A stretch of 64,000 nt of DNA from Escherichia coli O157:H7 (GCF_013167455.1 NZ_CP038328.1), one strand, 5' to 3'. Counted from the first letter of the stretch, positions 4,763 to 16,367 are shown. Numbers and translations: made by a program. Notes: a model not told the origin generated them from the letters alone.

Positions 4763-5137
4763 TTATGAGGTGGTTGCGGGTGCTGGTGTCGGATAAACAG
4801 CCAGATAAACGTAACCACAGGAGCCGAGGGTGTCGGCTTCGCAGGTCAGCCCTTTTGCATTCAGCGTGACGGTATGCTGATATCGGGGATTCAGTTCACC
4901 GCTGGTGAGCATGAGTTCCAGTTGTTTCATCAGCAGCGGAAAGGCCTGGTCCAGATGGTATGCATCTGCGTCGCTGAAGCGGCCTCTGATACCGGCGCGG
5001 TCGGCAAGGTAATGCAGGCGGTTACCCTCTTGCACCAGACGAGCGCCAAAACAGGGCCTCACTGTGCAGGGAAGCCCCCACCAGGGGCGGTCGTGATTGT
5101 CATCGGGATGAGTTATCCCGGAGAGTTTGTCTGACAC
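4763..5137 (-). CDS. cbeA: CbeA/YeeU-family antitoxin
   Basis: 124-aa ORF with [41 protein letters not shown]..., close match to remembered YeeU. Confidence 0.9.
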
Positions 5138-6651: not shown

Positions 6652-7470
6652 TCAGCGCATGCTCTCCAGCAGCGTTTCTGCCATCACCCACAATGCGCGA
6701 TTGAGCTTAATGTCGGTATCAATGCTGTGAATGGCCCGGGTATGGATACGTTTTCCTTTTGCACTGCGACCGGAAATCCCGCCTTTCAGCATATTCTCCT
6801 GGATGGTCTGATAAGCACTCCACAGGTCCTTACCGTAATCCTCCCGGCGTCGTGGTGTCAGAATGTCGGCGGTGGTGACGGGCTGATGTTCGTCACCATA
6901 ACGGTAAGTCAGTGCCGCCTGTGCCAGCGCCTGGCGTGCCGGTGGCGGCAGGACCAGCGACTGCATGGCATCACGCTTCTCCTCTATCCGGTCAAAAACG
7001 CCCACCACCTCGTAAGCCCCTTCAATGACTCTGTCCACCACATTTCCCCGGTGTGGAACACGCAATTCTCCCAGAGACTGACCGCAGACCAGTCCATTGG
7101 TACAAATGGCACGAAAATATCCGGGTAACATCTGGTAGCTGGATGAACCGTCATGGGAGTTGAGCAGAATAATTTCAGGGACATGCTGACCGGTTATCTG
7201 TCCGGCCCGCCGCAGACGCAGCATGTGTTTTGTGTATTCCCGGCGGCTCTGGTCGCGCACGCGGGTCTGGCAGGCAAAGAACGGCTGAAAGCCTTCCTGC
7301 TGCAGATTTTCCAGGACGGTGATAGTGGGAATGTACGCATAGTGTTCACTGCGAGAGGTATGTCGGTTTTCCCCAAAAATACTCGGTACATGGCGCATCA
7401 GTTCTTCGTGTGTCAGCGGACGATCACGACGTATCTGGTTCGCATAACCAAAACGACTGGCTAATCTCAT
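6652..7470 (-). CDS. DUF932-family protein (YafZ/YfjQ-like)
   Basis: 272-aa ORF; conserved position in CP4-like islands. Confidence 0.65.
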   Translation of the reverse strand: MRLASRFGYANQIRRDRPLTHEELMRHVPSIFGENRHTSRSEHYAYIPTITVLENLQQEGFQPFFACQTRVRDQSRREYTKHMLRLRRAGQITGQHVPEIILLNSHDGSSSYQMLPGYFRAICTNGLVCGQSLGELRVPHRGNVVDRVIEGAYEVVGVFDRIEEKRDAMQSLVLPPPARQALAQAALTYRYGDEHQPVTTADILTPRRREDYGKDLWSAYQTIQENMLKGGISGRSAKGKRIHTRAIHSIDTDIKLNRALWVMAETLLESMR

Positions 7471-7501
7471 GATTTGCTCCTTATGAATGATTAAGCGATA
7501 T

Positions 7502-7537
7502 AAATGAAAAAGCCGCGTCTCCCGGAGAAGACGCGGC
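7502..7537 (-). terminator. Rho-independent terminator on the minus strand, downstream of the patatin gene
   Basis: Stem GCCGCGTCT / AGACGCGGC with a U-run on the minus strand (A-run at 7506-7511 on plus). Confidence 0.55.
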
Positions 7538-7809
7538 CTGATGGGTGAAATGAATGAGGTTTATTGTCTGAGAAGCCCTTCACTGGCGAACCACGTATTA
7601 AGCTGTATTCCGGCATCGCCAGTGCAACTGACCTTCAGCATTGCGGATAACCCGCCGGAAATATGTTCACTGGTTGTTTTTGTATCTTCCCCCAAAATTA
7701 AATAAATTCATCTTAACCATCACCCAGATAATATATATCTGAAAATATTTTCAATAACACCAGACAGGAAAAACACCACCACAGGCGGTGGCGTTTCTTT
7801 GGGGCGTCT

Positions 7810-8880
7810 TTATTTAATCCGGGCCATCGCGTTTCTCAGTGCCAAATCTGCCTCTTCCGTTATATCCAGGCTTTTCTGCAATACCGCCTCTGACCGGGTC
7901 AGTGCCTGACGTGCTGCCAGCGGTTTCCGGATATGCTCCATCGCCAGCATCGTGTCTTCATAGCCCTGCTGACGCCAGGCGTCGGTATGTGCCGATGTAA
8001 AACTGAGCAGACCGCCGCTGTTGCCACCATCACCTGCATATTTCAGCCTTTTCCGGGGACGGATCTCAAGGATTGTGGTGTCCGGAAAAGCCTGGCGATC
8101 CCATAAAGAACCGTCACTCAGATGCGTCACAATCACCATATTGCATCCGGCATCGACCAGAGGCGTCACAGGGGTATTTCCCTGCATATTTCGCCATCCT
8201 CCCATACCACCATCACCGAACATTGTCCCCTGAACCTCACGGGGACGGAACAGCAGGGGCAGCGCGGCTGACGCAAGCAGAGCCTCTTTCTGCTGTCCGC
8301 GGGGCAGGCTCTGGATATGCTGAAAAACGGCGTTTTTCGTGGTTCCGACACCCAGTTCAGCACGAATGCAGTCAATAATATCCTGCATGCCCCCTTCTGT
8401 GGGGTACAGCGACACATACAGCGGTAGCCCGTCTGCCAGAGCATCAGTATCAAGATAATGATCCATCAGCGCTGTCAGGGGCTCATCTGACAACAACGGC
8501 TGAGCCATCAGATTGTCAAACCCGTTGATTGTCGATATATGGCGAAGAAGCGTCGTAAGCAGTGCTCCTGCACGTCCGGGGATCTGGCAGAGGTTCATTG
8601 CCTGGAACAATTTTTTCAGCAATGAAAAGTAAACCAATCTGTTTACCGACAGCACCTGATTATTCCCCAGATGCTCCCAGAGCGCCTCCAGGCGTACGGC
8701 AGCTTCTGACAGATCGGGAGAGGCCGCGATAATGGCACCATTGAATGCGCCAATGCTGGTCCCTGAAACCATGCTGATCTGTGTACCACACTCTGCCAGT
8801 GCCTTAACCACTCCCGCCTGATAAGCGCCCACCGCCCCGCCACCGGACAGCACCAGCCCCGTTTTCATTTCTGTACTCAT
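7810..8880 (-). CDS. Patatin-like phospholipase
   Basis: 356 aa; GGGAVG oxyanion-type motif near N-terminus, GTSIG (GxSxG) nucleophile, later DGG; 4-nt overlap with upstream gene. Confidence 0.8.
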   Translation of the reverse strand: MSTEMKTGLVLSGGGAVGAYQAGVVKALAECGTQISMVSGTSIGAFNGAIIAASPDLSEAAVRLEALWEHLGNNQVLSVNRLVYFSLLKKLFQAMNLCQIPGRAGALLTTLLRHISTINGFDNLMAQPLLSDEPLTALMDHYLDTDALADGLPLYVSLYPTEGGMQDIIDCIRAELGVGTTKNAVFQHIQSLPRGQQKEALLASAALPLLFRPREVQGTMFGDGGMGGWRNMQGNTPVTPLVDAGCNMVIVTHLSDGSLWDRQAFPDTTILEIRPRKRLKYAGDGGNSGGLLSFTSAHTDAWRQQGYEDTMLAMEHIRKPLAARQALTRSEAVLQKSLDITEEADLALRNAMARIK

Positions 8881-9782
8881 GCAGCCCCCTTCTGAAATAT
8901 TTCATCGACCATACTTTCAGAGAGGCGTTCTGCAGAGCAGAGGCGAGGCATGCGAACCGGTAAGTGTTCTGCAGCCTGCGTGGTTGACCAGATCACCGGA
9001 TGCTGCTCTTCACTGCACCAGTCTCCCAGCCAGTTAATCGCGTCATGCCACTCGTTATCTGCCTGCTCCCGGCCCTGACCACCAAGCCAGTCCAGAGTGT
9101 TCAGACGCACGGTTGCACTACCGCCACTCTCCTGTGCCATCTGCGTTAATGCTTTATGTCTGAGAATATCCAGTAGCTGGTTAACCTGGCCTGTTTCGCC
9201 CTGACGTATCACATCACCAAACGCGCCCCAGCGAAGCTCTTCAAGTGCCACATAACAACGTCCGGCAGGGGAAAATGACGCATATCGCCCGGCGCTCCAC
9301 CATGAGAATATCTGCTCAAGATGTAACTGCGCCCGCTGAACCTGGTCAACACGGTGGAGTTTTTCTTCAAGATGATTCAGTTTATGGTGAACCTGATCGG
9401 CCAGGGTGAGTAACTGCTCCCGCGTATCTGCGGAATAATGCGCCAGCCTGGCTGTATCACTGACCAGTGAACTGACCCTGTCGTTTACCCGGGTAATCGC
9501 GTAGTTTGTGGTGGCAAGTGACGTTGTCATCTCCGTCAGCCAGCGCAGGGACGCCTCAACGCCCTGTGCAAGCGACGCATTGATGGCATTCTGCCGTGCA
9601 GCGCCTTCGCCGGTCAGCCCCTCTTTTAAACGCCGGAAGAACGTGCGCTCTCCGGCCGTGCGGATATGCTCCTGTGCAACATCGATTCCGTTTGCGAAAT
9701 CAACCACAAATTTTTCAGGAAGACAGGTGAGTACCTGACATACCCGGTTATCAGCAATTTGTTGAATAAATGGTGAAGTCAC
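8877..9782 (-). CDS. YjcZ-like protein (partner of the dynamin-like GTPase)
   Basis: 301 aa; resembles remembered YjcZ; translationally coupled (overlapping start/stop) to the flanking genes. Confidence 0.6.
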   Translation of the reverse strand: MTSPFIQQIADNRVCQVLTCLPEKFVVDFANGIDVAQEHIRTAGERTFFRRLKEGLTGEGAARQNAINASLAQGVEASLRWLTEMTTSLATTNYAITRVNDRVSSLVSDTARLAHYSADTREQLLTLADQVHHKLNHLEEKLHRVDQVQRAQLHLEQIFSWWSAGRYASFSPAGRCYVALEELRWGAFGDVIRQGETGQVNQLLDILRHKALTQMAQESGGSATVRLNTLDWLGGQGREQADNEWHDAINWLGDWCSEEQHPVIWSTTQAAEHLPVRMPRLCSAERLSESMVDEIFQKGAA

Positions 9783-12166
9783 AGCATTGTCTCCAGCTCT
9801 TCCCTCAGCGCCTTACTGTCAGTAATGAGCTCAGGAACCCTTTCATTTAATGCCTGAAGTCGCCCGGTAAGCCGTTCCTGCGCCTGCTGATCGCGTTTAT
9901 GATCTTCAGAGCTCTGAATCAGCGTGTTACGCAGTTGTTCAACTTTCTCCCTGAATGCGCAGAAAAAGGCATCGATTTCCTGGCGGACGGGCTGGTTAAT
10001 ATCCTGCTCAATGGATGCCTGCAGCTCCCCGAAATATGCCCGGGTCAGTGACATAACTTCCTCTCTGGCCTTGTTGATATTGATCACGCTGCGACTCACA
10101 TCCTCGTCATAGTTTTCCCAGCCCAGGTCACTGGTGCCAAACCATCGACAAACGGTTCCCCATACGCCACTCTGCCGACGGCGACGGGTGACGGTCTCCG
10201 TTCTTTCCTCCATAAGCGCACTCAGATTTATTTTTACCGCGAGCCGGGTCTGTAACTGGCTGACTGCCGGAAAACTGATTTTTACGGTAAAGCCCTCATC
10301 CTCCAGGCGGGCATTGATGCGACCGGCAATGTTTTCTGTGGCGTACAGGGCCGTGCCACGAAAACCTGTTTCAATCCCGCTGACGATTTTCTCCAGCTCA
10401 GGCCGGAACTGTGCTTCAGCCTCACGGTGCAGGCTGGTCACGGTCGATTCGATTTGCGTCATCAGTTCAAGGGCTGCCCTGCGATCACTGAATTTTATTT
10501 CGGGGCTGTCCGGATCAAAGTCCCGCATCCTGTCATGCTGATTTCCGGTTCCGAAAATATCGTGAAAGAAAGCGAATGCGTTTCTCTCCCGGGGCTGCGC
10601 TGAATTTTCTTCCTCCAGCATTTGCTGTTCTTTGCGTTTACCGCTTCTGAAATAGTCGTTCAGCTCCTCCTCCAGTGAGGCACAGACCTTCGTCAGTAAT
10701 TCCCCGGTTTTGGTATTGATGTCCTCCATGGCCATTCTGACATCACCGGTCACCTGATTCTGACATTCCTCAATCTCCTGGATATCCGCCAGCAGGCTGG
10801 TAATATGCGCCTGTAGTGACTGAATGCTTTGCTGCAGCCCCTGATGACGTAATGACAGATATTCGCTGACATTTTCTGCATTCTGCATCAGTTTTGCGGC
10901 GGCAGAGTCAACCGCCAGTGCCGCCGCTCTGGAATGGGAGCTCTGTATGACTTCCGTTATCAGTTGATCGATCAGAGATATATTCCAGAGTTTTTCTGCC
11001 TTTTTATTTACCTTAGTGCTGTCTTTCCAGTCGTCCTCTTCCACCATAGGTCCGAAAGCTTCCCTGATAAAATCATCGACCCAGGCTTCATCAACCGGAA
11101 GCGCACCGTTTTTTCGTAACTCATGAAGCGCACGGTTAGCCAGGTACGCCTGACGTGATGAGCCGGGATAAACGCGGGAGGCGGGCAGCACATCGCTGTT
11201 CAGCATTGCTGGCACCTTCTGGCGTACGGCATCCGCACCATCACCATTGCGATCTTTTTCATCGAATTTATTGACCAGCACAAACAGACGACCGGCTGAG
11301 ACGTCAGCAATGGCATTAAGCTCTTTACGAACCTCCTCATCGGCTTTCGAGTTCATCTGGGTGTAATCCATCACCGCCAGCACCGCAGAGGCTTTCTGTA
11401 GTTGATCCCGCATCATCATTTCCATCTGTGGTTGTCCGGCTTCATTAGGGCCGGGGGTATCCAGCAGTGTGAGTGTTCCCTGACATGCATCCATTCCCAC
11501 CAGGTGGCTGAACGCCACGTCGATCACCGGTAGTTTCTGCACTTCTGCGTATTCGTCAAAAGGAAATTCAGTCCCCATTGCCGCAGCAAGACGAACCAGG
11601 TCATTTAACGATGCCAGTCCGGTAAAGATTTCGTCTTCCCCGTGGTATTCATTTTTAAGCCAGACATCATCCGCCAGAATATCCAGTAGTTCGCGGGTAT
11701 CCCCGGTTTGCTGCAGGGACTGTGCGACTTGCTGCCCTGCCGGGGTGGCGAGTTTTTCCTGCAGTGTGATTAATAAATTGCGGACGGGCTGAATATGTTC
11801 CAGATGGAGGACCGGTTCCGTTTTTCCGGGAACGTGGCGGATCAATGTCGGTACCGAGGTCATGGGGCGGTTACGGTTGGGCAGAATTTCCTGCCCCACA
11901 ATGGCGTTGATGGTGGTTGATTTGCCCGCCTTCATCGTGCCGACCACAGCCAGCACCATCTCCCTGCGGGCGGTTTTGATTTGTTCGCCCTCCAGCTCCT
12001 CAATTCTTTTCAGCGCTTTCCGTTTATCAAAAAGCAGCCCGTTTTCGTTCTTACTGTCAGATAACACATCCGGCTCATCAACCATTTGCCGGAGCAGATT
12101 GATATTCAGTTGCAAAAGCCGGTCGGCTTCATCACAAAGCAGGGCGATGTTCTTTTCGTGCATCAT
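9779..12166 (-). CDS. Dynamin-family large GTPase (CrfC/YjdA-like)
   Basis: 795 aa; G1 GTMKAGKST, G3 DTPGPNE, G4 NKFD; extensive coiled-coil C-terminal region. Confidence 0.8.
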   Translation of the reverse strand: MMHEKNIALLCDEADRLLQLNINLLRQMVDEPDVLSDSKNENGLLFDKRKALKRIEELEGEQIKTARREMVLAVVGTMKAGKSTTINAIVGQEILPNRNRPMTSVPTLIRHVPGKTEPVLHLEHIQPVRNLLITLQEKLATPAGQQVAQSLQQTGDTRELLDILADDVWLKNEYHGEDEIFTGLASLNDLVRLAAAMGTEFPFDEYAEVQKLPVIDVAFSHLVGMDACQGTLTLLDTPGPNEAGQPQMEMMMRDQLQKASAVLAVMDYTQMNSKADEEVRKELNAIADVSAGRLFVLVNKFDEKDRNGDGADAVRQKVPAMLNSDVLPASRVYPGSSRQAYLANRALHELRKNGALPVDEAWVDDFIREAFGPMVEEDDWKDSTKVNKKAEKLWNISLIDQLITEVIQSSHSRAAALAVDSAAAKLMQNAENVSEYLSLRHQGLQQSIQSLQAHITSLLADIQEIEECQNQVTGDVRMAMEDINTKTGELLTKVCASLEEELNDYFRSGKRKEQQMLEEENSAQPRERNAFAFFHDIFGTGNQHDRMRDFDPDSPEIKFSDRRAALELMTQIESTVTSLHREAEAQFRPELEKIVSGIETGFRGTALYATENIAGRINARLEDEGFTVKISFPAVSQLQTRLAVKINLSALMEERTETVTRRRRQSGVWGTVCRWFGTSDLGWENYDEDVSRSVININKAREEVMSLTRAYFGELQASIEQDINQPVRQEIDAFFCAFREKVEQLRNTLIQSSEDHKRDQQAQERLTGRLQALNERVPELITDSKALREELETML

Positions 12167-12273
12167 TCACCTTTATAAATTCAATAATTCAGAACTGCGG
12201 TGAACAGCAATGAGCGTCCTTTCCCATTACTGCATGAATTTTCCTGAAATCGTATTTCCGGGATACCGTATAA

Positions 12274-15123
12274 TCAGAAAGTCATATTCAGCGTAGCCTG
12301 ACCGTTATAGCCTTCAGCGCTGCTGCCGCTGACGCTGTGGGCATAACCGGCCTGAACGCCCAGGGTGATATTTTCCCGGATACGGGCTTCCAGTCCGGCC
12401 TGCAGGTCCAGTGACGTGCCATTCCGGGACGGTGAGAACGTCATGTTACTGCCGGCTGCGGCTGTCCCCATGCTCATGTCACCCCGGGAGCTGAAGGTGC
12501 GGATAACAGAAGGCTGTACCCACCAGTTCACCGGCAGTTCACTCACACTGTGTTTTGCACTGTCGCGCAGGGTGTCACGGGATGAGGTGCCTTCACCAAA
12601 GGTCATATCGTTGTGGCTGCCCAGACGGAAACCGGCACGCACATGTTGTGCACTGCCATGCCCGAACTTCACATAACCGGCGTTATCCTGGCCGTCATCC
12701 AGGGAGAGTCCCTGCCAGGTGTACTGCAGTTGTGGCTCCAGCATCAGATTGTCAGTGATACTGAAGGGCAGACCGGTTTCCAGTGAGCCCAGCCAGCCCC
12801 AGCCCCGGGCGCGGAAGTCGTTATTGTCCGATGACGCTTTCATGCTGTGACGGGTTCCCTGGGCCACAATGTCAGCCCACAGGCCGGAGGATGTGTGTAC
12901 CAGATTCAGGTATCCGCCCAGACTGCCGGCATCATCCCGGACCGTGCCGGCGCGGGAACCGTCATCATCCTTAACATCAACGGAAGAATGGCCTGCAGCA
13001 CCATACACCCCTGTCGTCAGAGACATACCGGCAACCTCTGTTCTGAGCAGGTCACCCTCCAGACGGACGAAGCCATAGCTGCCGCTGCTTTCCGGCGTGG
13101 CTCCACGGGCAATACCGCCGTTGTTATCGTGACCGAGATGACCGCCCTGAATGCTGAGACGGACGCTGTTATTTTCACCGTTTACACCGGTCTGATGGCT
13201 GCGGGAGCCTGCCAGAATCCGGTCATAGTCCATTGCCTGTGTCAACATGGATGTATACAGGGGGACTTCAGCACGATAAGCATTTTCACTGCGCAGGTAC
13301 CAGTCTTCATCGCTGTCACGGTTCAGGGTGTAGTTAAAGGCGCCGGCCTGAAGCGGGCGACTCAGGGCAAACGCACCTTCTTCTGTGGTGGCGCCATTCT
13401 GTGCATCCACAACCCGGATACCCTGTCCGGTGGTTGCCACCCCGAGGTTGCTGTTTCCGACATTTGTAAACGCAAGCCAGGTTTTGCCGGTTGCCTGACC
13501 ACCATTAATCACCAGCTGGTCAGAGGCATTGCTGCCATCAAGGCGAACACGCATATTGATGGTGCCGCCCTGGCCGGTGAGGTTCGTGGTGGTCAGTTTA
13601 TGGAACGTTACCGGGGAGTTACTTTTTGCAACAGCACGGCTCAGCGCGGCATTCGGTGTCGTCTGATTATCAAAGCGAATCTCCCCTGCGTTAACAATAT
13701 CGCCGGTACTGACCACATCACCATTCAGTACCATACTGGCGCCTTTACTGAGCTGTGTTCTGCCACTCAGACTTCCCCCGGCAGCCAGCGTCAGTGTTCC
13801 ACGATGTCCGACAGTGGTGTTGCCAGCCTGTCCCCCGGCATTAACCGTAAAGCTGCCGCCATTTTCCAGCAGCAGGCCGCTGGCCTGACCGGATGTGCCA
13901 TCAATACTGAACTTACCGCTGGCATTGGTCCCCTCAACAGTGGCACCACTGTCTGCAATCAGGGCACCACCGGATGTTATGGTGACACTTGTCGCCTTAC
14001 CGCCGGCAGACACTGCCAGGGTACCGCCGTCATCCACTAGGGTATTCTGTGCTGAATGGCTCTCCAGTACATCCAGACGACCGCCGGATTCCAGAACAAC
14101 ACCGTCAGCCTTACCGTTTTCCACCGTGAAATTCCCCAGACGGTTTGTGCCGATGACAGTTGCAGCAGTACTGGTAACCAGTGCACCGCCCGTGTTCTGG
14201 GTGACTGCAGTGGCTTCCCCGCCGGCATGTACCCTCAGTTCACCGTTCTGATTTATGGTGGTGTTACCGGCAGCGCCACCTGCCTTAACAACCTGCCAGC
14301 CCCCCTCGTTAATTACCGTGTTCAGCGCAAGTCCGTCCCTGTGCACATATTGGTAACCGCCATTCAGTGTGGTATTCAGGGCCCTTCCGTGTACCGACTG
14401 GTCACCACCTGCGTAAATGAGAGTGTCACGGGCTAGCCCGGAAAATAAGATAATCTGCCGTCCATTTTTGTTGATGGTGGTGGATTCTGCTGTTCCCTGG
14501 ACCTTCTGACCCGTATACGAGTTGTCAGAATCAGGGCCGCCTTCTGCGCCGGTGTTGATGATGGTTCCTGTTGCCAGCCCGCCACTTTTAACGCTCTGGT
14601 AACCGTCGCGGTTGATAATTGTACCGGTGGCAACCCCGCCCTCATGCACCCACTGCTCGCCTCTGTTATTCAGTGTGGTGTTCACCGCCAGTCCGTTCAG
14701 GCTCTGTCCCCCGCCGTCACGAATAACCGTATCACTGGCTGTTCCCCCCTCCAGCACGACCTGACGACCATTTGTGGTGACAGTGGTGTTTCCGGCTATC
14801 CCGCCATTCTGTATCCATTGCCCACCGGTGTTTTCTTCACTGTCCGGCCCCAGTTCCAGCCCGGTACTGATGGTCATTCCGTTGGCCGTACCGAAGACAA
14901 TCTGGTTGTCATGATTTGTCAGTGTTCCATCGTTCACGGTTTCTCCCGCCTGTACAACCTTGTCAGCAGCCAGTGCCGGGACTGATGTGACAGCAGCAAG
15001 AGACAGCGCAACCGCCACACCGGCGCGTTTTCCCCGTGAGCGGGCCAGTTCGGAGGCCACCACCAGGGTGCCCGTAATGTGATTCCATACCAGCCTGTAG
15101 CTGGTGTTCAGATGTCGTTTCAT
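12274..15123 (-). CDS. flu: Antigen 43-family self-associating autotransporter (Cah-like)
   Basis: ORF track 12274..15291; start at MKRHLNTSYRLVWNHITG (ATG 15121-15123); 949 aa; passenger repeats and C-terminal beta-domain ending ...ATLNMTF. Confidence 0.9.
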   Translation of the reverse strand: MKRHLNTSYRLVWNHITGTLVVASELARSRGKRAGVAVALSLAAVTSVPALAADKVVQAGETVNDGTLTNHDNQIVFGTANGMTISTGLELGPDSEENTGGQWIQNGGIAGNTTVTTNGRQVVLEGGTASDTVIRDGGGQSLNGLAVNTTLNNRGEQWVHEGGVATGTIINRDGYQSVKSGGLATGTIINTGAEGGPDSDNSYTGQKVQGTAESTTINKNGRQIILFSGLARDTLIYAGGDQSVHGRALNTTLNGGYQYVHRDGLALNTVINEGGWQVVKAGGAAGNTTINQNGELRVHAGGEATAVTQNTGGALVTSTAATVIGTNRLGNFTVENGKADGVVLESGGRLDVLESHSAQNTLVDDGGTLAVSAGGKATSVTITSGGALIADSGATVEGTNASGKFSIDGTSGQASGLLLENGGSFTVNAGGQAGNTTVGHRGTLTLAAGGSLSGRTQLSKGASMVLNGDVVSTGDIVNAGEIRFDNQTTPNAALSRAVAKSNSPVTFHKLTTTNLTGQGGTINMRVRLDGSNASDQLVINGGQATGKTWLAFTNVGNSNLGVATTGQGIRVVDAQNGATTEEGAFALSRPLQAGAFNYTLNRDSDEDWYLRSENAYRAEVPLYTSMLTQAMDYDRILAGSRSHQTGVNGENNSVRLSIQGGHLGHDNNGGIARGATPESSGSYGFVRLEGDLLRTEVAGMSLTTGVYGAAGHSSVDVKDDDGSRAGTVRDDAGSLGGYLNLVHTSSGLWADIVAQGTRHSMKASSDNNDFRARGWGWLGSLETGLPFSITDNLMLEPQLQYTWQGLSLDDGQDNAGYVKFGHGSAQHVRAGFRLGSHNDMTFGEGTSSRDTLRDSAKHSVSELPVNWWVQPSVIRTFSSRGDMSMGTAAAGSNMTFSPSRNGTSLDLQAGLEARIRENITLGVQAGYAHSVSGSSAEGYNGQATLNMTF

Positions 15124-15348
15124 CAGCTTTTCCTTACAGAGGGTGAATAAAAAAGCCGGTACCCACAAAAGTGGATACCGGCAGGTACAAAACAGAGTTA
15201 TCGGGCACAGCGATACGTCCCGGGCGTAAACGCTCTCCCCCTTCATCAGACAGAGAAGTATCAGTCTGTTGTGTGCAATTCCGTTCTGCATGATGAAGAG
15301 ATTCAGCTGCCTTTTCGCAGGCCATTAACCACTATAAACGATCGATAT

Positions 15349-15384
15349 AAACGATCGATACCTGTTTTATCGATCGTTTTATTC
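15349..15384. promoter_or_regulatory. Three closely spaced GATC sites upstream of the Ag43 gene (Dam/OxyR phase-variation switch)
   Basis: GATC at 15349-15352, 15362-15365, 15381-15384 within ACGATCGATATAAACGATCGATACCTGTTTTATCGATCG, about 230 bp upstream of the start. Confidence 0.65.
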
Positions 15385-15494
15385 TATTAACAGTAGAGCA
15401 GTCACGCAAGAGAAACAGGAGGGGCATGAGGTGTTTGTATCATGTTTTCAGTTGGTTAACGCAATGTAATCAGACATTTCCCCTGGCAGACTGT

Positions 15495-16367
15495 TCAGAA
15501 GAAAATCCAGTTCCATACCGCGCGGGCAACAGAGACCACCGTGTCACGGACGGCACGCAGAACTGTGCGTGCAACAGAGGCAACACAGACGCTCTCCACC
15601 GTGTCAAATATCCGGTCCACCGCACCGGTAAACTGTTCACGGGCCTGCCCCCAGACAGATTCCGTGCACAGCTCGTCCTGCAGGCGGGTCATCAGGGGAC
15701 TGGCGGCATGGTCGGGAAGCGCTGTCATGAGCGCACTGACCAGCGTATCCAGTTCCCAGCCGGTGCGGGCCGATACGGCAACAACCGGATGTACGGGCCG
15801 GAACAGCCGGAATACCGCATCTGTTTTTTCGCGAATGTTCTGTTCCTGTGCGGGAGAAGGCTGAATACCTGCCATATCCCATTCATGGCAGGGCTCTGTT
15901 TTGTCGGCCTGCGTCACCACAAACAGCACCTGCTGATGTCCCCGGTGCAGTATGTGTCGCCAGAAATACTCATCCACAGACAGGGCACGGTCATCGGCTT
16001 TAATCAGCCACAGTACCAAGTCCAGTTCAGGCAGAATGTCACGGTACAGGGCTTCATACTCTGCATCCCTGTCCCGGCTCTCGCCCACCCCGGGCAGGTC
16101 AGTGATAACCATGCTGTGACCATGGCCACTCAGACGGAAGCGCCGCACTTCCCGGGTGCCGGCGTGAACATCACTGACCGGGGTGACCTCCCCCTGAAAC
16201 AGTGCATTACAGAGTGAGGATTTACCGGCCCCGCTTTTACCCATAATGCCAATCACGGGTTCGTGACTGGTGAGTTTGCGCAGATGTTCCAGGATGTGAC
16301 GGGAAAGCGAGTAAGGCAGGGAGGAGAGCGGTTTTTCAATTGCCTCAATGGCATCAGACGGATTCAT
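15495..16367 (-). CDS. YeeP/YkfA/YfjP-family GTPase (50S ribosome-binding GTPase family)
   Basis: ORF track 15495..16406; likely start MNPSDAIEAIEK (ATG at 16365-16367); P-loop GKSGAGKSS, DLPG motif. Confidence 0.75.
   Translation of the reverse strand: MNPSDAIEAIEKPLSSLPYSLSRHILEHLRKLTSHEPVIGIMGKSGAGKSSLCNALFQGEVTPVSDVHAGTREVRRFRLSGHGHSMVITDLPGVGESRDRDAEYEALYRDILPELDLVLWLIKADDRALSVDEYFWRHILHRGHQQVLFVVTQADKTEPCHEWDMAGIQPSPAQEQNIREKTDAVFRLFRPVHPVVAVSARTGWELDTLVSALMTALPDHAASPLMTRLQDELCTESVWGQAREQFTGAVDRIFDTVESVCVASVARTVLRAVRDTVVSVARAVWNWIFF

Follow-up and report, generated by a model that had tools for sequence, protein, structure and literature searches.

The closest characterized relatives of the genes considered here are the proteins RdcA and RdcB of Escherichia coli (formerly YjdA/CrfC and YjcZ), which bind the cyclase DgcE directly (MASE1 domain) and activate it, raising the level of cyclic di-GMP (c-di-GMP); GTP inhibits this activation, the GTP-free form of RdcA being the active one (PMC6510439). 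RdcA of the core genome was reported to be a soluble protein and a regulator of an enzyme, not a remodeller of membranes (PMC6510439), and the K-12 rdcA-rdcB locus contains no lipase gene. For bacterial dynamins, roles in vesicle formation and membrane stabilization are documented (summarized in PMC12922286). In the present work a stretch of 64,000 nucleotides of E. coli O157:H7 DNA (NZ_CP038328.1; hereafter the window) was analyzed, in which a dynamin-like GTPase gene and an RdcB/YjcZ-family gene are followed by a gene of a patatin-like phospholipase. This trio was described in a 2026 transcriptomics paper as a putative dynamin defense operon (PMC12922286), and a second descriptive mention of the module appeared in the same year (PMC13182975); beyond such mentions, neither a name nor a comparative analysis or functional characterization of the trio was found in the literature. 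The initial annotation of the window, which could match the architecture to no named system, was right in this; a description of the operon, however, had already been published. According to our data, the trio is one autonomous, horizontally mobile module. We tentatively read it, with somewhat less than an even chance of being right, as a GTPase/RdcB-gated membrane lipase, most probably serving abortive-infection-type anti-phage defense.

An alignment scan with the RdcB-like protein, taking one genome per species, yielded 77 loci, and wherever the locus extended far enough a dynamin-like gene was seen ahead of the RdcB-like gene. In neighbor-joining trees of both proteins (unrooted, with midpoint rooting), the two-gene and three-gene architectures appeared as reciprocally monophyletic groups. 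A full-length patatin homolog (42-94% identity) directly follows the pair, on the same strand, in all 26 loci of the island-type clade, whereas no patatin gene was found in any of the 50 loci of the two-gene core-type clade, which is confined to Enterobacteriaceae. The initial annotation had described the housekeeping yjdA-yjcZ pair as having no lipase partner, and this holds for the core-type loci as well as for K-12, while its grouping of the patatin gene with the dynamin pair is borne out by the synteny of the whole island-type clade. The hosts of this clade belong to Gamma- and Betaproteobacteria and include E. albertii, Pantoea, Erwinia, Budvicia, eight Pseudomonas, Thiodictyon, Allochromatium, Macromonas, Aquaspirillum, Comamonadaceae, Paenacidovorax, Gallionella, Yanghanlia, strain HdN1 and others; some copies are plasmid-borne. 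In E. coli, 2,442 of the 5,426 complete genomes (45%) carry the trio, in up to five places per genome. The initial view of the genes as island cargo is correct as to their location, but they are not special to this strain.

Overlaps of 4 nt predominate at both junctions across the loci, the distance matrices of the three proteins correlate pairwise (r = 0.85-0.89, Mantel p ~0.0005), and the genes evolve under purifying selection, with nonsynonymous to synonymous substitution ratios (dN/dS) of 0.07-0.35; given these ratios and the conservation in 2,442 E. coli genomes, the three genes are real far beyond chance. Only the trio itself is conserved: flank clustering showed the surroundings to be unrelated from locus to locus, and a conserved fourth gene was rejected on these grounds. 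In Methylomonas, an extra open reading frame (ORF) of 99 aa without a family match lies between the GTPase and RdcB-like genes (L083, 9617-9916, and L084, 1774-2073). Comparison of window positions 9779-12166 with positions 12509-14905 of the E. coli locus L002 revealed mosaic alleles, the synonymous divergence (dS) being 0.22 in the GTPase gene and ~0 in the RdcB-like and patatin genes. The GTPase has hypervariable patches: residues 361-400 and 521-560 differ between allele classes, and residues 661-700 vary inside a single class. The patches are real, but we did not count them as an arms-race signal, since recombination mosaicism explains them at least as well.

Clustered at 50% identity, the small YjcZ family amounts to 475 clusters in a set of 1.84 billion representatives, and its most distant members still have a patatin gene directly after them. 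A design with a constant sensor and a swappable effector was rejected for this family, as patatin was found with every distant member examined. In one locus (L096, 7001-9630), situated beside parE/parC, a 532-aa DUF3944-YjcZ fusion protein gene is followed by patatin without any dynamin-like gene; the N-terminal extension of the fusion is unrelated to the GTPase, and its interpretation as a GTPase remnant was discarded. Since this GTPase-less fusion still carries patatin, the connection between the RdcB-like protein and patatin is the tightest link in the module.

The island GTPase shares 33% identity with K-12 RdcA over 764 aa, and its partner shares 30% with K-12 RdcB over 281 residues. With the NCBIfam CrfC equivalog model NF007368 the GTPase reaches 566.7 bits against a cut-off of 1146, so that the resemblance to CrfC/YjdA and YjcZ pointed out initially stands as homology but not as orthology. 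The core rdcAB pair is present in 5,404 of the 5,426 complete E. coli genomes, and O157-type genomes keep it too; considering that the trio occurs in 2,442 of these genomes, it is an accessory paralog and no replacement of the core pair. A cyclase gene linked to the trio was found in none of the loci examined. The form with the lipase has a broad taxonomic range and the two-gene form a narrow one, which suggests, the trees being unrooted, that the housekeeping RdcAB of Enterobacteriaceae is the derived state. A two-gene subclade of Cedecea/Enterobacter loci without patatin (L026, 4787-5503; L027, L028, L029 and L031) has a shortened relative of the WYL-type regulators described below, of helix-turn-helix (HTH)-WCX composition, ~100 bp upstream of the GTPase gene; it precedes all five Cedecea-type loci. 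This subclade possibly represents a stage on the way from the mobile trio to housekeeping RdcAB.

The profile searches proposed with the initial annotation gave Pfam matches to Dynamin_N (5e-18) for the GTPase, to YjcZ (3e-70, over the full model) for the RdcB-like protein and to Patatin (2e-24) for the lipase, and the motifs that had been read from the window are all in place: GTMKAGKST, DTPGPNE and NKFD in the GTPase, of which G1, G3 and G4 are kept in the orthologs, and GTSIG and DGG in the lipase. In the latter, the GGG oxyanion motif (G13-G15), Ser42 of GTSIG and Asp222 of DGG are invariant in 27 orthologs and, judged from its sequence, the protein has all the marks of a patatin domain (GGG, GxSxG, DG[GA]). 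No signal peptide is visible in the lipase sequence. Its similarity to PlpD (5e-13) and VipD is N-terminal, and VipD and the lipases of the cyclic-oligonucleotide-based anti-phage signaling system (CBASS) are among its weak sequence matches. The AlphaFold2 (AF2) model of the GTPase (predicted local distance difference test score, pLDDT, 79) comprises a G domain (~69-350) and four long stalk helices; the same model and the ortholog alignment place a conserved Trp-rich beta-hairpin element (~653-696) at one stalk end, and no hydrophobic helical paddle was identified in the model. A Foldseek search with this model returned BDLP (2.2e-13), SynDLP (2e-12) and IniA (5e-11), followed by mitofusins, with LeoA only at rank 23 (E = 1.5e-7). 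By its predicted fold, the GTPase is a member of the dynamin superfamily of the BDLP/mitofusin type (G domain plus long helical stalk). The model of the RdcB-like protein is all-alpha, its C-terminal domain (~140-298) being confident and its N-terminal half disordered, and the fold search found no informative relative for it. No solved structure close to any of the three proteins was found in the searches made with them.

Mobility of the trio is evident from its genomic settings. In E. coli the trios reside in CP4-44/CP4-57-like, tRNA-linked islands, and a variant with 62.5% identity is carried by Klebsiella, Enterobacter and E. coli plasmids; many of the trio-bearing plasmids are predicted to be conjugative. 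On an IncFIA plasmid of Enterobacter hormaechei (L092, 6773-10991), IS1 abuts the GTPase gene, which is annotated there as ~50 residues shorter. The trio was also found in an integrase/DUF927 element of Pseudomonas, a CP4-like element of Pectobacterium and an integrase/polB element of Plesiomonas, and in Allochromatium it is flanked by ileS and lspA and accompanied by Uma2 and Fic genes, in what looks like an insertion. The trio of Vibrio vulnificus, in an element with resolvase and relaxase genes, adjoins BrxL/PglZ, that of P. fluorescens adjoins SIR2 and BrxR, and that of a metagenomic contig adjoins DndB/TGT-like genes. Searches of 50,697 phage records and of IMG/VR found no trio.

A defense census, for which 20 trios from outside Escherichia were taken and the three large ORFs closest to each were searched with PADLOC profiles, revealed defense or candidate defense genes in 8 of the 20 loci: BrxC (E = 0), a complete JukAB pair, JukA, mad3, a type I methyltransferase, PDC-S17 with a Fic protein, PDC-S24, and SNF2 DrmD/DpdE-like helicases at two loci, one of them being the JukAB locus. 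The control, consisting of one representative for each of 10 neighbor families of the two-gene core rdcAB clade, gave no PADLOC match (0/10). An 'RTasPolA' match in locus L020 was left out of the census, the 933-aa PolA-like protein in question being probably a housekeeping one. By its neighborhood the trio is a resident of defense islands, in a small sample of 20 loci. Regulators of the WYL/BrxR type precede the trio at many loci. A dedicated HTH-WYL-WCX family, upstream and on the same strand, was found in 6 of the 26 loci, the gap to the GTPase start codon being 13 bp in Gallionella, and other WYL regulators occur at trio loci of Vibrio and further Pseudomonas. In three Betaproteobacteria only, a member of a small secreted or lipoprotein-like family separates the WYL regulator from the GTPase gene (L014, 4139-4591; L008, 2565-2975; L023, 2404-3426). 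Considering that patatin is co-inherited in every member of the clade and that the neighborhoods are mobile and rich in defense genes, the defense reading is better supported now than it was from the window alone.

The trio of E. coli was found to be linked to a control element that the initial annotation did not contain. In E. coli lacking Ag43 at this place and in E. albertii, the GTPase gene is preceded by 215 bp with homology to the regulatory region of agn43 (flu), where methylation of GATC sites by Dam and binding of the repressor OxyR are in competition (PMC3764049). An alignment of the K-12 flu region, O157 cah and the Ag43-less loci L002 (14906-15125) and L004 (5390-5607), where the switch lies directly upstream of the GTPase gene, showed the -10 element TAATAGAAT and three GATC sites to be invariant and conserved in spacing. 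In the window, the switch precedes cah, with the -10 element TAGAAT at 15386-15381 and GATC sites at 15375-15372, 15356-15353 and 15343-15340. Megablast coverage ended at query position 4774, and together with the sequence comparison this showed that the homology between O157 and most other trio-bearing strains ends ~7 nt upstream of the GTPase start. The junction of switch and trio was counted in 1,982 genomes and the O157-type junction of cah/Ag43 and trio in 634. As a scan detected neither a terminator-like nor a promoter-like site in the 107-bp spacer between cah and the GTPase gene, read-through from the switch at 15340-15390 into the O157 trio is likely.

In its -10 element, three GATC sites and their spacing, the element is like the agn43 (flu) switch, whether it stands upstream of cah, as in the window, or of the GTPase gene, as in the 1,982 E. 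coli genomes and in E. albertii. Unlike agn43, the Ag43-less arrangement has neither the long leader (isrC region) nor the adhesin gene, and the switch would therefore drive the trio itself. What is new here, as far as sequence can tell, is that the trio lies directly behind the agn43 Dam/OxyR switch in most E. coli, and via cah in O157; the switch is probably the real control element of the trio in this species. From its presence upstream, the trio would be expressed phase-variably in E. coli and is probably on in only a subpopulation of cells. If so, the published 'lysogen induction' of the dynamin operon (PMC12922286), which represents the only available expression data, could reflect a clonal ON/OFF difference.

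In the proposed mechanism, the soluble BDLP-type GTPase and its RdcB-like partner would constitute a nucleotide-state-dependent switch, the output of which would be the co-encoded cytoplasmic patatin phospholipase. The GTPase/RdcB pair would keep the lipase inactive until a trigger, presumably a drop of GTP, a membrane perturbation or a phage component, causes its release or activation; the Ser42-Asp222 dyad would then hydrolyze the phospholipids of the inner membrane. In E. coli, the agn43 Dam/OxyR switch would limit expression to a subpopulation. We infer the gating of the lipase by analogy, because RdcA/RdcB activate DgcE only in the GTP-free state and patatin lipases are generally latent. 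Thus, the CapV lipase is activated by cyclic GMP-AMP (cGAMP) and VipD by the Rab5 GTPase, such enzymes being typically latent until a ligand or partner switches them on. To our knowledge, a co-encoded dynamin-like GTPase/RdcB activator pair has not been described for any characterized patatin.

Several points weigh against this reading. No phage phenotype, lipase activity or protein-protein interaction is reported for the trio in the literature, nor was its recovery in systematic E. coli defense screens found there, despite its 45% prevalence; the RdcB-like protein has no match in PADLOC-DB v2, from which the trio is missing. RdcA/RdcB are signaling proteins, not immune ones. The nearest neighbors in E. 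coli are antirestriction, RadC and CbtA/CbeA genes, with classical defense genes not among them, and no mobile or defense context was seen at Klebsiella L090, Methylomonas L083, L024 and L032. The census is small, and its control had a single representative per neighbor family. Furthermore, the coupling to the Ag43 switch fits a role in biofilm formation or aggregation equally well.

A wider version of the defense reading, which we consider rather unlikely as it stands, would make the trio the ancestral form of an unrecognized class of immune or suicide modules, composed of an infection-sensing GTPase with an RdcB adaptor and a patatin directed at the cell's own membrane. RdcAB would be its domesticated, lipase-less descendant, and infection would possibly be sensed through the GTP pool or the state of the membrane. 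Being deployed via the Ag43 Dam/OxyR phase switch, the module would arm only a fraction of E. coli cells, which would amount to bet-hedging.

Among the rival explanations, the one that survives best, although we hold it to be unlikely, is a module of membrane homeostasis or remodeling (repair, vesiculation, lipid turnover or curvature by lysophospholipids), co-expressed with Ag43 in the aggregated or biofilm state. The fold of the GTPase resembles those of the membrane-active BDLP, SynDLP, IniA and mitofusins, its tip bears the conserved Trp-rich element, patatin enzymes act on membrane lipids, and bacterial dynamins take part in vesicle formation and membrane stabilization (PMC12922286). The position of the trio behind the agn43 switch or downstream of cah in E. 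coli is also in line with such a role, but this link is seen in Escherichia only. Moreover, core RdcA is soluble and regulates an enzyme (PMC6510439), and a patchy, multicopy and plasmid-borne distribution amid bacteriophage exclusion (BREX), Juk, restriction-modification and PDC genes and WYL regulators would be unexpected for a housekeeping-type function.

The near-full-length homology to RdcA (33%) and RdcB (30%), reflected in the RefSeq family name of the partner, could also mean that the trio is a signaling paralog of RdcAB working in the c-di-GMP or another pathway (DgcE/MASE1 cross-talk), with the lipase as a regulated metabolic or signaling output, for example through fatty-acid or lysolipid signals, that would tune biofilm formation and motility. 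O157, like nearly all E. coli, carries core rdcAB and hence DgcE partners, and the trio is co-located with the Ag43 biofilm adhesin. However, island and core sequences form two reciprocally monophyletic clades, the CrfC equivalog cut-off is missed by half, the partner conserved across many taxa is always a lipase and never a cyclase, and the neighborhoods are of the defense and mobile kind, not of the signaling kind, which makes this explanation quite improbable. A selfish addiction module, in which a lipase toxin restrained by GTPase/RdcB would exert post-segregational killing like the neighboring CbtA/CbeA and CcdAB, is highly improbable, since, notwithstanding the location on islands and plasmids beside toxin-antitoxin genes, the multiple copies per genome, the potentially lethal effector and the tight coupling of the genes, three genes of 4.4 kb with a large GTPase are atypical of such systems, a labile antitoxin is not in evidence, and conditional deployment accords better than constant addiction with the WYL regulators and the phase-variable control, although in its mechanism this explanation overlaps with abortive infection and is perhaps not truly separate from it.

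If the reading of the trio as a gated defense lipase is true, it would represent a mechanistically new immune arrangement, in which a dynamin-superfamily GTPase gates an enzyme effector, with parallels in the eukaryotic immune dynamins (guanylate-binding proteins, GBPs, and Mx) and in VipD, a lipase activated by Rab5. Genes of nearly half of the sequenced E. coli, including O157, lineages of extraintestinal pathogenic E. coli (ExPEC) and resistance plasmids, would thereby acquire a function, and the RdcAB-DgcE biofilm switch would have its evolutionary source explained. Control by the much-studied Ag43 phase switch would then extend beyond an adhesin, and differences between the transcriptomes of clones, e.g., the 'lysogen-induced' operon (PMC12922286), could be those between ON and OFF colonies.

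The window is 100% identical to E. coli O157:H7 genomes and represents the tRNA-Ser-integrated tellurite-resistance and adherence island carrying cah, iha, ter and ure. The features of the trio and its surroundings are collected in Table 1. As read initially, the trio consists of three translationally coupled minus-strand genes with 4-nt overlaps. The overlap reads GTGA at the junction of the GTPase and RdcB-like genes and ATGA at that of the RdcB-like and patatin genes, a Shine-Dalgarno sequence standing in front of each. In RefSeq the products are named 'dynamin family protein', 'diguanylate cyclase regulator RdcB family protein' and 'patatin-like phospholipase family protein'. The trio is flanked by cah upstream and by DUF932, antirestriction, JAB/RadC, DUF987 and YeeU/CbtA genes downstream.

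Table 1. Positions of the trio and of the adjoining genes and control sequences in the window.
Feature	Position	Strand	Description	Basis
Distal terminator	7510..7539	-	Strong GC-rich hairpin with T-run	Scan; blastn of window 7300-7613 to L002 8901-9227
O157-specific filler	7614..7724	.	Short sequence in place of ~1.23 kb	blastn against L002, L002 ORFs, annotation
Proximal terminator-like site	7774..7790	-	Hairpin with T-run directly 3' of the patatin stop	Consensus scan, sequence
Patatin-like phospholipase gene	7810..8880	-	356 aa, cytoplasmic; ATG start, overlaps the RdcB-like stop	
RdcB/YjcZ-family partner gene	8877..9782	-	301 aa; GTG start, overlaps the GTPase stop	
Dynamin-like GTPase gene	9779..12166	-	795 aa, RdcA/CrfC paralog; ATG start (RefSeq start one codon later, at 12163)	ORF scan
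Spacer	12167..12273	-	cah stop to GTPase start, 107 bp	Scan, sequence, megablast
cah	12274..15123	-	Calcium-binding Ag43-family autotransporter	RefSeq annotation, ORF
agn43-type regulatory switch	15340..15390	-	Control region upstream of cah	Sequence; alignment with K-12 flu region and L002/L004

The terminator that had been placed at 7502-7537 was confirmed as a hairpin, with slightly different limits (~7510-7539); another terminator-like hairpin with a T-run lies closer to the patatin gene. The distal hairpin sits in sequence common to strains with two extra genes after patatin and, from this comparison, ends the five-gene version of the unit found elsewhere. O157 is devoid of the ~1.23 kb (L002, 9228-10454) in which other E. 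coli have these two small genes, between patatin and DUF932. They encode signal-peptide proteins of 136 aa and ~227 aa, for which no family match was found in PADLOC or NCBIfam, and probably correspond to genes four and five of the 'five-gene' unit reported in PMC12922286. No relatives of them were detectable beside other trios, nor was any relation between them and the small secreted family of Betaproteobacteria; both are treated here as local additions.

Three further loci of the window were noted. A YeeP/YfjP-type small GTPase (15495-16367, minus strand) has weak similarity to LeoBC (4e-8) and LeoA, and genes of this type are again found near the trio in the elements of Pectobacterium and Pseudomonas fluorescens (L085, 1333-2208; L089, 11915-12889). 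A 722-aa helicase (21972-24140, minus strand) matches the helicase parts of Mokosh MkoA (5.5e-44) and MkoC (1e-40); its gene overlaps that of an uncharacterized 171-aa protein (24137-24652, minus strand), and the two may be a further defense pair in the same island. Finally, an IbrA/IbrB-like pair (3'-phosphoadenosine-5'-phosphosulfate (PAPS)-reductase-like and ParB-like; 19616-21471, minus strand) beside a PerC-family regulator is weakly similar to BrxP (9e-8) and DndC.

Comparison with described systems agrees with the initial statement that the trio corresponds to no named one: PADLOC, NCBIfam and Pfam matched it at the level of domains only, and the CrfC score was half of the cut-off (567 vs 1146 bits). 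The matches in PADLOC-DB v2 were weak and partial, namely LeoBC (9.2e-6, 23 bits, no passing stretch), ZorA and a CBASS-type lipase (6e-6, N-terminus). With Eleos (LeoA/LeoBC) and DynA of B. subtilis the trio has in common an island-borne dynamin-superfamily GTPase with a proposed or shown role in phage defense, which is the part of the initially suggested Eleos/LeoA link that holds; closer kinship does not, PADLOC giving no LeoA match. Membership in Eleos was rejected for this reason, for the lack of a passing stretch in LeoBC, and because the trio has a single dynamin-like gene, not two or three paralogs, while Eleos and DynA have neither an RdcB-like partner nor a lipase effector. The patatin effectors CapV of CBASS, VipD of Legionella, PlpD and RssA share with the trio lipase the patatin fold, the Ser-Asp dyad and the GGG oxyanion motif, but the similarity is limited to the N-terminal 50-70 residues. 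Membership in CBASS was rejected as well, the lipase reaching 22.5 bits with NF041079 (CapV), for which the cut-off is 200, in a match confined to the N-terminal 65 residues, and no gene of a cGAS/DncV-like nucleotidyltransferase (CD-NTase) or cyclase being annotated in the island or at other trio loci.

RdcA/RdcB come closest: here too a dynamin-like GTPase gene is followed by that of a YjcZ-family protein in an overlapping operon, the proteins are alignable over nearly their full length and have the same G motifs, and a nucleotide-state-dependent switch acting on a partner enzyme is the likely common logic (PMC6510439). Membership in orthologous RdcAB was nevertheless rejected from the bit score, the identities and the separate clade. 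In the trio the lipase is always third, whereas the core pair never has one; the trio is accessory, mobile and multicopy, whereas the core pair occupies a fixed locus; and the trio differs in its upstream control region, which has WYL regulators or the agn43 switch, and in its defense-rich neighborhoods. Taken together, these sequence comparisons define the trio as a variant of dynamin-like GTPase modules and patatin effectors that stands outside Eleos, CBASS and orthologous RdcAB.

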